Shown here: piece by piece, positions 26,671 to 64,000 of the stretch
Numbering within the stretch: the first letter of the stretch is position 1
Layout: every line of letters begins with the position of its first letter
Source of the DNA: Phycisphaerae bacterium
GTDB taxonomy: Bacteria; Planctomycetota; Phycisphaerae; UBA1845; Fen-1342
DNA length: 64,000 nucleotides
Reading direction: 5' to 3'
Assembly: GCA_050115495.1 (NCBI GenBank)
Contig: JASFQK010000003.1
Span: 32,001-96,000 of the forward strand
Notes under the pieces: model-generated
Told to the model about the DNA's origin: nothing
The model's input: the letters and a program-made list of their open reading frames with translations, nothing else
The model's database searches: none
Translations under genes and position numbers: made by a program

Positions 26671-29517
26671 CTATCCGCCGATGTCGATCGGGATACGCAG
26701 GACCTCGTCCTGACTGGAACGTTCCCGCAGCCGCACGTAGCCGACCGGCCGCGTGCCGTCCGGGATGTCCTTCAACTTGCTGGCGGCCTCGAAGCTCAGG
26801 TGCAGCGGCACGCTCGGCACGAGGTTAAGAGCGTCCTCGCCGCCCTGTGTGACCTCGACCGCCACCGGCGCCCCGAACAACCGATCGATCTGCACCGTGA
26901 CCGGCGTTTTGCGCTGATCGTCGGCGATGGCGAAGCCAGCGTGGATGACGACCTGGAGCGATTTCTTCCCGCGCGTGCTCACGATCCCATCGAACACGTG
27001 CCCGTCGAACGCCGACTGGTAGATGGCCTCGTCGCCGTCCTTGACCAGCACACCGATGTCGGTGACCGTCGCATAGTCTTCCGGCGCGAGCTCCAAGTGC
27101 AGCCGCAGCCGATTGAACCGCTCGTCCAGGCTCACCGAGTAGGTCAATTCGTCCTTGAGCCCCTTGAACTCGGCGTCCTTCTGCATGCGGAAGCCTTCGA
27201 TCTGGCCGTCGCCGCTGGCCGCGATCCGCCGCTCGAACATGTTCGTCACCGTCAGGTCGCCGGCGGGCCTCTCGGGGTTACCTTCAGTGAGGATGGGCGG
27301 GGCGGCGTGGATGCCGAAGAACTGCACCTTCAGTTCGTACGGCCAAGACTCGTCCGGACGGTTGGACACGACGGGCACTTCCCACACGCCGGGCGTCAGG
27401 TCGTCCGTGAATGTCCAGGTCGCCTCGCGCTTGCCGTTTTCCGTGTCGAGGCGCTGCGCACCCGACCGGAACTGCCGGCCGTACGGATCGAAGATGCGGT
27501 CCATGCCGGCCCTCGACTTCGCTCCCTCCGGCGCCGTCAGCACCAGCCTCATGCTCGACGCCCCCGGCGGCACGGCGACGAAGTACCGATCCGGCAGCCA
27601 GCCGGCGACCGTACGCTTCGTGAACGTCTGCGTGAAGTTGTTCCCCTCGTTGAAGCGGTAGGGCACGATCACGGTATTGACCAGCCGGAACGCGGGCAAC
27701 CCGTCCACGAGCCCGTCCACGGTACCCACGTGCAGTCCCGGTTCGGTGAGCTGGGCGGCGTCGTACTCCACGAAAACGCGGGCCACCTGCTCGCTGTGCA
27801 GGTACACGGTCTCCTGGGCCACGCGGCACCAGGGCGTGTTCGAACGCAACGTGTACTGCCGCGTGAAATCCGTTCGCGTGGCCATGTCCGTCGTCGGGGC
27901 GAAGATCGGTGCGATGGTGAACGCTTGGCGGTCGTCGCTCGGGAAGTACGTGCTCCGCCAGTACGCCGCCGGTGCCTCGCCCTCGTAGCCGTGCGGGCAG
28001 GGCGTCGAGATCTCGTAGCCGATCACCGGGTCGTCCTTCGCCGCCGGCAGTAGCTTGGCTAGCACTTCGGCGGCCTTGCTCACCTCGGGCAGGCCCCAGC
28101 CGGAGTCGAGGAACGTCGTGCCCTTCACGGGCCGCCCGGCGAGCCACAGCGCCCGCCGCACGTCAAAGGAGCGCACGTGCACGGCCGGATCCGTCTGCAT
28201 GGCGTTGCTGATGAGCAGGGCACACAGGCCAGCGCAATACGGGCTGGCCATGCTCGTGCCGGCCCAGAAGTCACCGTGGCGCGTCCAGCGCGGCACGGTC
28301 GACGTCGACCAGCCCGGCACCGCCACGTCCGGCTTGTCCAATTCACCGCCGCGCGAGCTGAACAGCGTGATGACCGGCTCGTCCAGGTGCCAGCCGGCGA
28401 CATCGCGCCCGCTGTCGGCGGCCATCATCGCCGCCACGGAGATGGCCGCACTCGCCGCCGCCGGCGTGCCGACGGTGGACAGGCCCGGACCGGCGTTGCC
28501 GGCGGACGTGCAGAACACCAGGTACGGGTTCGCGTATAGGGCTTCGTCCACCACCTCGTCGATGTCCGAGTTGCCCTCGATTTCCGAGTCGACGCCGTAG
28601 GACAGGTTGCACACGACCGGCACGTTGTGCTCGCGGGCGAAACGGGCCGCGTAGGCCAGGGCCTTCCGCTTGCTCTCCGTCACGCTGATACCGCCCAGGG
28701 CCCCGCGCCCGATCTTCAGGCTGATCACCTTCGCCCCGGGAGCGACGCCGTTGAGACCGTCCTGGTTGTTGATGCGGTAACCGGCGGCGATGCCGGCCAC
28801 GTGCGTGCCGTGCGCCCCGTTATCGAAGTGGAACGTCACCTTCGCCTGGCGGAGGAAGATATTCGCGGCGAAGGCCATGGGCACGATCTGCACTTCCGGC
28901 TGTTCGCGATACAGCGTGAAAGTCTCGTAGGCCAGCTTGTAGTTATGCAGCGCCTTCTCGTCGGCGAAGCTGCGGTCCAGGTTGGTGTCCACGTAGCAGA
29001 CGGCCTGGTCGTCGCCGTCGCCGGCCAGCGCGGTCACCAGCACCGGAAAGACGTCGTCGGTCGTGCCGTTGTCATTCAGGTCCGGCTGATCGGCGTTGAC
29101 GAACTTGCTCTCCTTGAACTCGCCGAACCACCAGCGCCGCTCCTCGGCCGCGGCGGGCAGCGCCGGCGGGGTGTACTCGATGGGCGTGCCGTCGTTGTCA
29201 TGCTTGATCAGCATGCCGCTCTGCTCGTCGAGGAGGATACGCAGCAGGTCCACGTCACCGTCGCCGGTGAAGTCCTGCACGTCGATGACTTTGACCTCGC
29301 CGTCGGGCGTGTGGGTCAGGCCGGGGATGGACGGATCGACGCCCGTATCCATGACGGCAATCACGACGCCGCGGCCGTCGCTGTTCGGATGGGCGGCGAG
29401 GAAGGCGTCCACGCCGCAGGTGGACAAGGAAAGCTGCGTCCAGCCGTGCTGGTTCTGGGCGAGGCCGGCACTCATCCCGAGCGCCGCAATGGCGAGCAGC
29501 ACCGCATACTTGCGCAT
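26671..29517 (-). CDS. Secreted S8 serine peptidase, tripeptidyl-peptidase II-like
   Basis: Signal peptide; catalytic triad DTG / HGTHVAGIAAG / GTSMASP; TPPII-like GVDAFLAAHPNSDGRGVVIAVMDTGVDP...TPDGEVKVIDVQDFTGDGDV; GGAGG RBS. Confidence 0.9.
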   Translation of the reverse strand: MRKYAVLLAIAALGMSAGLAQNQHGWTQLSLSTCGVDAFLAAHPNSDGRGVVIAVMDTGVDPSIPGLTHTPDGEVKVIDVQDFTGDGDVDLLRILLDEQSGMLIKHDNDGTPIEYTPPALPAAAEERRWWFGEFKESKFVNADQPDLNDNGTTDDVFPVLVTALAGDGDDQAVCYVDTNLDRSFADEKALHNYKLAYETFTLYREQPEVQIVPMAFAANIFLRQAKVTFHFDNGAHGTHVAGIAAGYRINNQDGLNGVAPGAKVISLKIGRGALGGISVTESKRKALAYAARFAREHNVPVVCNLSYGVDSEIEGNSDIDEVVDEALYANPYLVFCTSAGNAGPGLSTVGTPAAASAAISVAAMMAADSGRDVAGWHLDEPVITLFSSRGGELDKPDVAVPGWSTSTVPRWTRHGDFWAGTSMASPYCAGLCALLISNAMQTDPAVHVRSFDVRRALWLAGRPVKGTTFLDSGWGLPEVSKAAEVLAKLLPAAKDDPVIGYEISTPCPHGYEGEAPAAYWRSTYFPSDDRQAFTIAPIFAPTTDMATRTDFTRQYTLRSNTPWCRVAQETVYLHSEQVARVFVEYDAAQLTEPGLHVGTVDGLVDGLPAFRLVNTVIVPYRFNEGNNFTQTFTKRTVAGWLPDRYFVAVPPGASSMRLVLTAPEGAKSRAGMDRIFDPYGRQFRSGAQRLDTENGKREATWTFTDDLTPGVWEVPVVSNRPDESWPYELKVQFFGIHAAPPILTEGNPERPAGDLTVTNMFERRIAASGDGQIEGFRMQKDAEFKGLKDELTYSVSLDERFNRLRLHLELAPEDYATVTDIGVLVKDGDEAIYQSAFDGHVFDGIVSTRGKKSLQVVIHAGFAIADDQRKTPVTVQIDRLFGAPVAVEVTQGGEDALNLVPSVPLHLSFEAASKLKDIPDGTRPVGYVRLRERSSQDEVLRIPIDIGG

Positions 29518-29682
29518 AATAAGCACCTCCAGTTAGCGGGTTTTGTCCCGTGTGTAAGCTTCCCACTGTAACGCCCGGGCCGGGCCTCGTAAAACCCGGG
29601 CAGGGGCCGAGAATCCATGCCCTGACGGCTCGTGACCGACGTGCACGCCCGCGCGCTTTGCGTTCGGTTCGCGGTTGCCGCC

Positions 29683-29691
29683 TGCTATAAT
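29683..29691 (+). promoter_or_regulatory. Extended -10 promoter element
   Basis: TGCTATAAT about 100 nt upstream of ATG 29788. Confidence 0.5.
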
Positions 29692-29787
29692 GGCGCTGTC
29701 TCCGCCCGCGGCGGGTCAGCCATGGAGGCGAGTCCCCCGGTCCACGAGTCTGCGCCGCGGCCGGAAGTACACCGTCAGGAGGATGTA

Positions 29788-31923
29788 ATGAGGCACCAAG
29801 GCGCAGCTTTGTGCTACAACATTCGACAGTCGCTGCTGGCGTTGCTGGCGGCGGCGCTGCTGGCCCCGGCCGCACTGGCCGCCGACCGCTTCGTCGTCGT
29901 CGAGCACGTCGCAGCGCTGGGCTGAACGGCCGATCCCCCTTACGCCGGTCAGGCGTTGGATTGGCTGCTCGCCGACTATCCGGACCTGTTCACCTTTGTG
30001 CAGATCCGCGTCGGCTGCGATGGCGCTACGCCCTGGGGCGACTTCCGCTCCAACGACTTCTACCAGGTAACGCAGACCCCGGACGTCTTCTTCGACGGCA
30101 TCGACGACGTGGCCGGTTCGTTCGGTTCGACAGAGGACCAGTACAACGAATACCTGATGCACCTGCTGCCGCGGGCCATGACGCCGACGGACGTCACCCT
30201 GGACGTTACGGTGTACCCGGTCACCGCCGAGGTCTTCCGCGTCAGCGTGCGGGCTTGCCTCGCCGCCGGCGCGCCCGCCCGCACCGTGCGCCTCTACCTG
30301 GTCCAGTTGCTCGACTACTGGCCCGGGAACCCTGACTACTCCCGCAACACGTTCGTGCAGGCCATGCCGACCGTGGACGTCGACCTTGCCGCCGGCGATT
30401 GCCAGAGCGTGAGCCACTACGTCACCTTCGACGCCACGAGCTGGGAGTTCAAGAACGACATCCGCCTCGTCGCCTGGGCCCAGGAGCCGCAGGACACGAG
30501 CCCGCCCGGCGACCGCGCCGAGATTCTCCAGGGCGCGGCCTCACCCTGGCCGTTCACGCCCGACTGCAACAACAACGCCATCGCCGACGACAAGGACATC
30601 GCCGCCGGCACCTCGCTCGATCTCAACGGCAACGGCATTCCCGACGAGTGCGAGCCCGCCCTCCGCGGCATCGACCTGTGGACCACGCCCGGCGGCGGCA
30701 CGACCTACCACGACTTCGCTTTTTCGCCGGTCCCGCCCGACTTCTTCGGCCCGGGCTCCGATCCGTTCGAGGGGCAGGTGGCCCTCGTCGGCCAGCCGCT
30801 CCCGACGGAGCCGCCGGGATTGCTCGGCCCGACCGACCTGGTCGTCGAACGCGTCACCGACGCCGACGTGATCGACATCGCCGCCGTGAGCGAGGTGGGC
30901 CTGGAGATCCGCGCGCTCAACCTGGTCTCCACCGAGCCGGTCGTCGTGACCTACGGTGGGGGGCAGGCCCCCGAGCTGTGGACGCTGCACGTGTGCCTGT
31001 CCGACCTGTGGCAGCCCTCGGGCTTCATGACCATCTATCGCAACTGCGCCGACGGCGGCACGTTCGATGCCTTCCTGCCCGTGCTCCCCAAGCTCATCTT
31101 TACCCGCGAGGGCGACGGCACCGAGCGCGTCTTCGATTTCGGTATCGCCGGCGTCGAGCCGCTGAACTTCGAAGTCTTCGGCGGCCGGTGGGTCGTCGAG
31201 CCCGATCCGGCGTTGGCGATCATCAGCGCTGACGAAGGCATCGTCGTGGACAGCAACTGCGATGGCGTGTTCGACCTGCCGCTGCTCGGGACGTCGCGCT
31301 TCACGGCGGGCATCCGCGCCGTGCCCTGCGACCGCAGCACCTGGCCCGGCGCCGAGCAGCGCAAGCGCCTCACTACTTTCGGCGCTGCGCACAGCACCCT
31401 CGGCCTGCTGCCCGCCCAGATCCCCGGCGCCGACACCGACGGCGACGGTTTGCCCGACGACGCCGACAACTGCCCGGACGACTGGAACCCGTTGCAGGAA
31501 GACGCCGACGGCGATGCCTTCGGCGACCTCTGCGATAATTGCGCCTACATCGACAACCCGTTCCAGGAAGATGCGGACGGCGACGGCGTGGGCGACCCGT
31601 GCGACAACTGCCGCGATGAGTATAACCCGTTGCAGGAAGACGAAGACAGCGACGGCGTCGGCGACGCCTGCGACCAATGCCTCGGCACGCCGGCGGGCAC
31701 GCCGGTCTTCGAGAATGGCTGTCCGTACCCCCGCGGCGATCTCAACTGCGACACCGTGGTGAACAACTTCGACATCAAGGCTTTCGTGCTCGCCGTCTCG
31801 AACCCGCTAGCCTATGCCGAAGCGTACCCCGATTGCCTGATCGACCTCGCCGACGTCAACGCCGACGGCTCGGTCAACAACTTCGACATCAGCCCGTTCG
31901 TGCAGTTGCTCTCCGCACCGTAA
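29788..31923 (+). CDS. Putative secreted selenoprotein: signal peptide, thioredoxin/Omp28-like domain with Sec46, DCNxN repeat, beta domain, TSP3 repeats, dockerin-like tail
   Basis: AGGAGG RBS. ORFs 29632-29925 and 29956-31923 share one frame, separated by a single TGA in [26 protein letters not shown]-like hairpin follows. Confidence 0.75.
29927..29967 (+). promoter_or_regulatory. Candidate bacterial SECIS element
   Basis: Lower stem CGGCCGATCC/GGATTGGCTG; upper stem ACGCC/GGCGT; apical loop GGTCA starting with G, 21 nt after the UGA. Confidence 0.65.
31432..31680 (+). repeat. Coding thrombospondin type 3 Ca-binding repeats (~69 bp period)
   Basis: DxDGDGxxDxxDNCxxxxNPxQE repeated 3-4 times. 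Confidence 0.85.
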
Positions 31924-32294
31924 CGAACACCGCCGCCCCGAACCGTAGGGCGGGTTTCACCCGCCGCTCGCCGGCCTCGTCCCCCGATAACCCGCCCGGC
32001 ACGCGAACACCGCTTCTGTGAATCCGGCACGACGGATCCGATTACTTAATCTGTCTGCCATGCGTCCGCGCATGTCTCGCCCCGGAATCTCCGCGCCGGT
32101 CACTTCGAAACGACACCTGTTATCAGGCGCGTATGTATCGGTCCTGGGGGGCTTTCACGATTTTGCCGCCGAACGTTGACGACCGCGTCTGTGCCGTCCT
32201 ACCACCCATGATGAGGCTGACAGTTCTGGGAGATCGGCGGCACTGCCAAGTGTGACAACGAGCGAGCCCCGGAGAGGGTTGGAAAGGAAGAAGC

Positions 32295-32879
32295 ATGACT
32301 CGGAAGCAACTGATTTTCGCGGTGTGTTCGGCGGCGGTCGTACTGGCCATTCCGAGCGTCGTTCGGGCCGATATCCACACGCTGCGACCCACGCCGGCGG
32401 ACCTCGGCGACCTCGACCACGGTGTGTACGTCACGTGGGGCGTCGACTGGAGCGTGCCGACCGGCGAGGAGATCATCGCGGCCACGCTGGCCATCGAGAA
32501 CCTCAATGACTGGACGGTGGAAGACGACGACATCATCTACATGCACCTGCTCGATGAGGCTCTGCCGGGCGTGCATTCCTGGACTGACCACCAGGGCGGC
32601 GGCGACGCCTTTGAAGGGCAGGGCGTCCTCCTGACGACCTTCAGCGACGACGACGGCTCGCCCAACGCGCCGGAGGATTGGAGCTACAGCTTCACGCCGG
32701 CGCAGATCGACGCGCTGACGGACTACGCGGCGGACGGTCACTTCGGGCTCGGCTTCGATCCGGACTGCCATTACTACAACGACGGCGTGTCGCTGACGGT
32801 TCAGACGGCCTCGATCCCGGAGCCGGCCAGCATGGTGCTGCTGGCGGCGGGGACGTTGTTCGTGAACCGCCGGCGGTAG
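32295..32879 (+). CDS. PEP-CTERM sorting-domain surface protein
   Basis: Signal peptide; C-terminus IPEPASMVLLAAGTLFVNRRR. Confidence 0.9.
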   Translation: MTRKQLIFAVCSAAVVLAIPSVVRADIHTLRPTPADLGDLDHGVYVTWGVDWSVPTGEEIIAATLAIENLNDWTVEDDDIIYMHLLDEALPGVHSWTDHQGGGDAFEGQGVLLTTFSDDDGSPNAPEDWSYSFTPAQIDALTDYAADGHFGLGFDPDCHYYNDGVSLTVQTASIPEPASMVLLAAGTLFVNRRR

Positions 32880-63674: not shown

Positions 63675-64000
63675 AACCGCGAACTGCCCTCGTCGTGACG
63701 CTGGCGGGCCTCTTCGGCGGCCTGGGAGCGTGCGACGGGCAGAGCGCCGGTGCCGGCGGTACCCCGCTCCTCGTCTTCGGCCGTACGGGTGTGGGCCCGG
63801 GGGAATTCACCTATCCCCGCGCCGGGGTGGCCGCCACGGATGGTCGGTTCTACGTCGTCGACAAGGCCGCCCGTATACAGTGTTACACCGGCGAGGGCGA
63901 GTTCGTCCTCGAATGGCGGATGCCCGAAAGCCAGGCCGGCAAGCCGACCGGCCTCGGCATCGACGCCGCCGGGACCGTTTACGCCGCCGACACCCACTAC
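63671..64000 (+). CDS. NHL-repeat lipoprotein, 3'-truncated
   Basis: GTGA overlap; LGAC lipobox; FGRTGVGPGEFTYPR...YVVDKAARIQ...GKPTGL...YAADTHY. Confidence 0.8.
   Translation, partial: MKPRTALVVTLAGLFGGLGACDGQSAGAGGTPLLVFGRTGVGPGEFTYPRAGVAATDGRFYVVDKAARIQCYTGEGEFVLEWRMPESQAGKPTGLGIDAAGTVYAADTHY

Follow-up and report, generated by a model that had tools for sequence, protein, structure and literature searches.

The locus examined here raises two linked questions: whether an in-frame TGA in a gene for a putative exported protein is a stop or a selenocysteine (Sec, U) codon, and what kind of active site that codon would complete. The gene lies at 29788..31923 (+ strand) of the window, by which we mean the whole 64,000-nt stretch analyzed (positions 32,001 to 96,000 of contig JASFQK010000003.1, Phycisphaerae bacterium, assembly GCA_050115495.1). 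Decoding of the TGA at 29923..29925 (+ strand, codon 46) as selenocysteine is almost certain in our judgment, and we infer it from the machinery and the insertion signal that were both found in this genome. Alignment with relatives further indicates that the branch to which the gene belongs, in which a Cys and an Asp have exchanged places, is a new active-site variant of a known superfamily.

A single frame of 711 codons runs from the ATG at 29788 to the TAA at 31921-31923, and its sole internal stop is the TGA, read here as Sec46. The ribosome-binding site AGGAGG (29777..29782, + strand) precedes the ATG with a 5-nt spacer. The sequence-only reading had joined two called pieces into one gene with this frame, start and ribosome-binding site, and all three were as it described. 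It had also expected standard annotation to miss the gene, which was borne out. The open reading frame (ORF) caller's version was a 655-aa piece beginning at a TTG at 29956, downstream of the TGA, and the protein database entry P0002 is the identical 655-aa piece. The same truncation was common among database relatives, 113 of 177 of which start downstream of the Sec site; in five of these (P0002, P0007, P0011, P0013, P0045) the matching locus has a TGA just upstream.

The site column was compared in 73 distinct related genes, which were the fetched loci, best matches first, out of a longer match list. TGA occupied the column in 55 of them and Cys in 18 (48 UxxC, 18 CxxC, 5 UxxD, and 2 CxxU motifs), and Trp in none of the 73. 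Within the genome, TGA terminates 435 of 1068 long ORFs; it is therefore not generally recoded and acts as a normal stop elsewhere. A reading of UGA as Trp was rejected, since the relatives' column holds only TGA or Cys and TGA is common as a stop. That the TGA is a true stop, created by a nonsense mutation or an assembly error, or that it is read as Trp or Cys, is very improbable. Such a reading could draw on the fact that only one public run, X1, covers the gene. The X1 contig (depth 20) matched 29500-31901 with 0 differences and so shows the TGA, which speaks against an error in the consensus; X1 is possibly the source sample, in which case the match would not be independent. Run X2 contained only scraps of the stretch, and no RNA data set was listed as containing the gene. 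Against a true stop, TGA recurs at the same site in many genomes and alternates with Cys only, its frequent use as a terminator argues against general Trp or Cys recoding, and the covariation of the hairpin and the full Sec machinery are hard to reconcile with a dead codon.

The window's genome (92% complete) carries selA (532 bits), selB (302 bits), selD (367 bits), and the tRNA-Sec gene selC (66.7 bits), all above cut-off, and its selD has an in-frame TGA of its own. Both selA and tRNA-Sec were also present in all 5 tested genomes carrying motif variants. A second ARAGORN "tRNA-SeC" call at 63769-63868 (+ strand) was set aside as likely spurious: it had no Rfam RF01852 match, its structure was poor, and an open frame (63671 onward) encloses it.

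A candidate selenocysteine insertion sequence (SECIS) follows the TGA. The full two-tier hairpin occupies 29927..29967 (+ strand), with a lower stem in which CGGCCGATCC (29927-29936) pairs with 29958-29967. The 5-bp upper stem, in which ACGCC (29942-29946) pairs with GGCGT (29952-29956), forms with its loop the conserved core ACGCC-GGTCA-GGCGT (29942..29956, + strand). The loop GGTCA is placed 21 nt past the TGA, compared with 18 nt in relatives without the one-residue insertion described below. The bacterial SECIS (bSECIS) model specifies a loop of 3-9 nt with G at its first two positions, an upper stem of 4-16 bp, and a spacing of 16-37 nt (PMC13188914), and the element agrees with it through its 5-nt GGUCA loop, 5-bp stem, and 21-nt spacing. 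The 47-nt hairpin piece folded at -23.7 kcal/mol (z -3.86, 0/200 shuffles), while three longer or shifted cuts gave z values of -2.3 to -2.7. As a chance control, in-frame stops in open coding-like context were scanned genome-wide for a GGT-pentaloop hairpin whose stem has 5 bp or more. Such a hairpin followed 2/324 TGA, 1/341 TAG, and 0/97 TAA codons, and the window gene ranked first; the filter was strict enough to miss the paralogous TGA gene on contig C14, so that these figures gauge chance and not completeness. The only other TGA past this filter, at G000:C46:29205 (- strand), lies in the context CPYG-TGA-SMAP.

Comparison among relatives showed which part of the hairpin matters. Synonymous sites were analyzed in a first set of 56 genes, comprising 39 TGA genes and 17 Cys genes; anchoring failed for 3 of the latter, which were excluded. 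The Gly codon in the loop was GGT in 38 of the 39 TGA genes versus 4 of the 14 Cys genes, compared with a 12% share of GGT among the genome's Gly codons. In the 39 TGA genes the closing pair was CG in 23, GC in 13, and TA in 1, with 2 unpaired. The upper stem and loop were conserved, with 94% of cells paired, and the upper-stem covariation was equaled in 0/500 shuffles; these covariation figures are inflated by kinship, and the conserved Ala-Gly-x-Ala codons fix much of the stem. The pattern at synonymous sites shows selection on the hairpin in TGA genes. The two-tier hairpin with a G-initial loop at 21 nt proposed from the sequence therefore stood as a fold, but its conservation was confined to the upper stem. 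The lower stem, only 49% paired across the family versus 94% for the upper stem, was rejected as a family feature and is peculiar to the window gene. Four Cys-codon genes (L048, L078, L030, L077) retain the GGT loop, two of them with a perfect stem, and L048 and L077 use TGT; these are possible recent Sec-to-Cys changes.

The protein into which Sec46 would be built has a recognizable architecture. Residues 32-131 (29881..30180, + strand) form a predicted thioredoxin-like domain with the invariant residues Glu39, Arg87, Tyr92, Pro98, and Gly110, and residues ~134-256 (30187..30555, + strand) form an immunoglobulin (Ig)-like domain of the Omp28/HBP35 type with conserved Cys157 and Cys205. A model of residues 31-258, folded with 56 relatives, reached a predicted local distance difference test score (pLDDT) of 96. 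Its best structural match was HBP35 (5y1a; Z 23.0, root-mean-square deviation (rmsd) 2.5, 215 residues), followed by Atu2684/DUF1223 (2axo; Z 18.4), with thioredoxins lower. The Ig domain alone matched Omp28 2r2c at Z 9.0 (rmsd 1.8, 100 residues). This order, thioredoxin and then Ig-like, is the Omp28/HBP35 architecture, in keeping with the Trx/Omp28-like fold assigned from the sequence, and when the family profile is aligned to thioredoxin the Sec column falls on the first Cys of CGPC. The model NF033782 was matched by 34/56 relatives, below its cut-off.

The family motif is [UC]xxC followed, after strand beta2, by H-x-x-D, with His in 217 of 228 members and Asp in 175. The window protein departs from both halves. 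At position 49 (29932..29934, + strand) it has Asp, where 51 of 55 aligned relatives have Cys, so that the motif reads U-T-A-D, and one extra residue follows. After beta2, R74-V-G-C77 (30007..30018, + strand) replaces H-x-x-D. Asp thus stands at the place of the Cys and Cys at the place of the Asp. The TGA does fall at the first Cys of a CxxC site, as had been claimed, but the second Cys of that motif is missing, and the earlier reading as a UxxC-type site had overlooked both the swap and the beta-barrel domain described below. The same swap was found at 44-53% identity in three other genomes, G020 (UGPD, RYGC), G090 (UGGD, YVGC), and G092 (UGAD, HISC). In a tally spanning loci and database proteins, with two CxxU genes counted separately, a Cys lay 3 residues past the His column in 5 of the 7 sequences without a second motif Cys and in 0 of the 126 with one. 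Ten loop-Cys sequences formed one clade (Shimodaira-Hasegawa-like approximate likelihood ratio test (SH-aLRT) 91), and P0088 (CSYA...HFWC), in a separate clade, looks like a second origin of the loop Cys. A sample of 401 genomes across the class yielded no new variant members. In the two CxxU genes the Cys lies one residue after the His column. These genes, L090:1540-1650 (G259) and L178 (G239), read C-G-V-U, with Sec moved by one position, EIQCD in the loop, and an intact SECIS core, and by alignment they are another rewiring of the site.

Given the Cys/Asp swap, Cys77 is a candidate for a relocated resolving partner, and the reading we put forward is that of an exported Omp28/HBP35-like selenoenzyme in which Sec46 would be resolved by Cys77 instead of by a CxxC partner; we hold it with about even confidence. 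Sec46 and Cys77 are the only Cys or Sec residues of the thioredoxin domain, and the remaining 18 Cys of the mature protein are even in number and might pair locally. Such a partner also has parallels. In deiodinase 3, a selenoenzyme of thioredoxin fold, the loop after beta2 adjoins the Sec (PMC7506546), and remote resolving cysteines have precedent in peroxidases of the glutathione peroxidase (GPx) type (PMC2552391), which makes the Cys77 idea plausible. The GPx-type TbTDPX2 resembles the window protein in having a thioredoxin fold, no CxxC partner, and a second Cys elsewhere; it differs in that helix alpha2 carries its resolving Cys, 19 A off and 48 residues on, while the candidate here is 31 residues on, after beta2 (PMC2552391). 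No Pfam profile of the GPx or peroxiredoxin families matched the window protein (E<=0.1) or the 56 relatives (E<=0.01).

Several findings weigh against this interpretation. The association between the loop Cys and the loss of the second Cys amounts to ~2 independent events, so that the Fisher p of 6.5e-8 overstates it, and P0088 is a single database protein known without its DNA. The second Cys has been lost without replacement in G009 (UGAD, HVRD) and P0038 (CPYS, HLYD). A further Cys at column 108, present in 2 of the 4 DNA-backed clade members (G020, G090) and in P0003, might instead be the partner of the loop Cys. Of the ten clade members, six (P0003, P0004, P0005, P0006, P0059, P0105) are truncated database proteins, and the Sec motif falls outside their sequences. 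In the window copy, conserved residues of beta1 are replaced (F41V, T42A), and its branch is long (0.64-0.75). Finally, two genomes with TGA copies, G002 (84% complete) and G054 (67% complete, with a partial match), have no selB above cut-off.

Part of this evidence suits a different view, in which Sec46 is real but acts by itself, as a nucleophile of the monothiol type that an external thiol would regenerate, with Cys77 structural or incidental. The UxxD gene of G009, which has no loop Cys and fell outside the loop-Cys clade in both trees (quick searches with SH-aLRT support only), and the CPYS protein P0038 are what this view would predict, as are the column-108 Cys of three loop-Cys members and the UxxT, UxxS, and UxxG motifs that are common among listed selenoproteins (PMC13188914 Table 1). 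It accounts less well for the restriction of the loop Cys, found in 0/126 sequences where the second motif Cys is retained; Cys108 is moreover absent from the window protein, and Cys77 would then be its lone extracellular thiol. We regard a lone Sec as a doubtful though serious alternative.

The long branch would also fit a decaying copy in which Sec is inserted into a defunct active site, and the changes F41V, T42A, C49D, and H74R could be taken as its marks. Genomes of three other genera nevertheless retain both UxxD and the loop Cys at 44-53% identity, their frames and SECIS cores being intact, and decay is improbable.

Since the exchange preserves the Sec/Cys/Asp set and alters only its positions, the residues might instead form a metal-ligand shell or a deiodinase-like substrate pocket. 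The frequency of the loop His and Asp in the family fits such a pocket, and a profile alignment to deiodinase-like proteins paired Sec with Sec and HxxD with HxxD. That alignment was weak (probability 1.1%, E 0.047, 42 columns), most loop-Cys members have R, Y, or P instead of the His, and in HBP35 the CxxC is redox-active and dispensable for hemin binding (PMC2907840), all of which leave a pocket unlikely. The iodothyronine deiodinases (PF00837; background in PMC9141512) share the thioredoxin fold, a Sec without a +3 Cys, and an HxxD loop beside the Sec (PMC7506546), but the window protein lacks the loop His and Asp and reads UTAD and QIRVGC versus UPPF and AHxxDGW. Deiodinases were not among the 50 listed fold matches, and membership was rejected on that hhalign result and the missing motifs. 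As a separate observation, deiodinase-like genes with an in-frame TGA (L210-L216, L218; GSxTUPPF) scored above the Pfam cut-off in 7/61 related genomes, and none was found in the window's genome.

If the Sec46-Cys77 reading is right, the protein would work as follows. SelB-tRNA(Sec) would bind the GGU-loop hairpin and place Sec at codon 46; the signal peptide would export the protein, and the dockerin-like tail would presumably retain it in the envelope. The Sec46 selenolate would then attack an oxidized substrate, either a disulfide or a peroxide, as the fold and the thioredoxin activity of HBP35 suggest. Cys77 would join Sec46 in a Se-S bond, to be reopened by a reductant of the envelope, a step proposed from the swap and to which we give an even chance. 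The beta-barrel may, speculatively, hold a hydrophobic substrate.

That barrel is the second departure from the known family. Residues 291-548 (30658..31431, + strand) form an unnamed domain predicted to be an all-beta barrel (pLDDT 94.8), which follows an acidic linker repeat with two Cys, DCNNN...DECE (30562..30654, + strand), that includes invariant alignment columns. The window's copy of this domain had no convincing match in sequence searches of Pfam, NCBIfam, and the PDB, and Foldseek gave no match at E<=0.001. The top match of a wider structural aligner was DynF (6ubl; Z 10.7, rmsd 3.2, 148 residues, 17% identity), with the outer-membrane barrel NspA within 1 Z unit (Z 10.0). DynF is an eight-stranded barrel enclosing palmitic acid (PMC8725005); it is the best structural match, and a shared fold shows no function. 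Other proteins that begin with a leader-like N-terminus and differ in their tails carry the module too, and therefore a soluble, mobile domain would fit. Carriers (L068, L074, L075, L084, L086, L091-L125) belong to Planctomycetota, Zixiibacteriota, Latescibacterota, Chloroflexota, and Bacteroidota records, and the module is present twice in P0105. A genome-contig scan keyed on the linker and barrel recovered 80 loci, which are informative for the middle domain only. The module merits a family description of its own.

The barrel and the swap occur together. The loop Cys was found in 11/16 barrel-bearing matches versus 2/234 without the barrel; after three database duplicates were dropped it was found in 9/13, with 1 of the 13 not covering the loop. 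The one-residue insertion, and hence the altered spacing, is shared by all six barrel-bearing genes for which DNA was at hand. On these alignments, the barrel travels with the altered active site. It is tempting, but doubtful, to go further and propose that the reciprocal Cys/Asp exchange gives a Sec46-Cys77 couple which, with the DynF-like barrel presenting a hydrophobic substrate to it, makes a selenoenzyme that acts outside the cell on lipid-like peroxides, disulfides, or halogenated compounds.

The superfamily itself is not new. GOS_C was predicted in 2008 as a selenoprotein whose fold is Trx-like and whose motif is UxxC (PMC2398784), and NF045500, "Omp28-related selenoprotein", corresponds to the hypothetical protein GOS_C, again with the motif UxxC, in a 2026 review (PMC13188914). 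The sequence-only reading therefore overrated the novelty of the gene, given that predictions of Omp28-like selenoproteins date back to 2008; its 711-aa selenoprotein with Sec46 otherwise held up, with the Sec genes present, TGA or Cys at the column, and the TGA in the reads. GOS_C/NF045500 and the window gene are alike in having Sec first in a Trx-like site, Cys homologs, and a SECIS behind the TGA, and they differ in that the former is listed as UxxC while the latter has UxxD, a loop Cys, and an added beta-barrel domain. NF045500 was matched at E<=0.01 by 54/56 N-terminal domains, but not by that of the window protein. The whole window protein scored 94.6 bits against a cut-off of 200, with its best stretch in the repeat tail (591-707), and no protein in the window's genome scored above the cut-off. 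The window protein would function much as a GOS_C/Omp28 protein does and is in the superfamily by fold, but fails the NF045500 score and motif. The UxxD motif was absent from the table rows covered in PMC13188914, and "UxxD" from the text of PMC2398784, although subscription journals and supplements may record such a form. Literature searches found nothing relevant on Omp28 with selenoprotein or selenocysteine, and no CXXD among the matches listed for CXXD with thioredoxin fold or resolving cysteine.

HBP35 of Porphyromonas gingivalis is an exported protein that uses its CxxC to reduce insulin (PMC2907840). HBP35/Omp28 (PF11551, NF033782, 2r2c) and Atu2684/DUF1223 share with the window protein a unit of two domains, Trx and Ig-like (Z 23.0 and 18.4); they are Cys proteins at 9-15% identity, and HBP35 depends on the CxxC where the window protein has Asp49. 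Family profile searches detected no type IX sorting domain in the window protein, the tail of which is dockerin-like.

The remaining features bear on where the protein is placed. A likely signal peptide spans residues 1-31 (29788..29880, + strand; cleavage ALA|ADRF), judged from a leader hydropathy of up to 2.7 (11-residue window) and from relatives with similar leaders ahead of the same mature start; a hydropathy scan downstream of the leader found no stretch of membrane strength. Thrombospondin type 3-like repeats follow the barrel at residues ~549-635 (31432..31692, + strand), with PF02412 above its Pfam cut-off (25.4 versus 25 bits) and an NF047638 stretch at 549-610. Residues 650-702 (31735..31893, + strand) form the dockerin-like tail, which resembles the tails of paralogs and scored under the Pfam cut-off (PF00404, E 0.031). 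Of the two extracellular modules first named, the repeats were thus upheld and the dockerin assignment fell short. Signal peptide and tail together suggest a cell-surface location. The gene is flanked by a divergent subtilase (Peptidase_S8; 26671-29526, - strand) and a PEP-CTERM protein (32295-32879, + strand). Neighbors vary between variant-bearing genomes, and neither of these genes is kept beside the variants, so that they offer no operon clue; a promoter and terminator search at the gene gave nothing above chance.

Relatives were found in 26/61 near genomes and in 70/279 genomes of the order. A family profile search returned 309 clusters at E<=1e-30, a metagenome-contig scan returned 2 loci, both ordinary UxxC, and the database names of close relatives are Planctomycetota and Phycisphaerales. 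The genome itself holds three paralogous domains, a UGYC and CSYC tandem on C14 and a CGSC on C4. The tandem (G000:C14:112100-115100, - strand; UGYC with SECIS core) keeps the same domain order and a dockerin-like tail. In G000:C4:106122 (+ strand), L026, L028, L031, L033, L035, and L036, the Trx-Ig unit, with Sec or Cys, is fused to a multiheme cytochrome c with several CxxCH. Such fusions form a well-supported subfamily, in which the cytochrome could be a built-in electron source or sink.

A mis-annotated selenoprotein would by itself be routine, and the greater interest lies in the swap. Should Cys77 resolve Sec46, the branch would be a natural experiment on moving the resolving residue within the thioredoxin fold, and the UxxC, CxxC, UxxD, and CxxU forms in one family are suited to side-by-side assays. 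The link with the barrel may offer a lead on what substrate is used by a superfamily that was predicted in 2008 and is catalogued as a hypothetical protein (PMC13188914). If the swap is what it appears to be, it would be a new way of building a selenium redox site.

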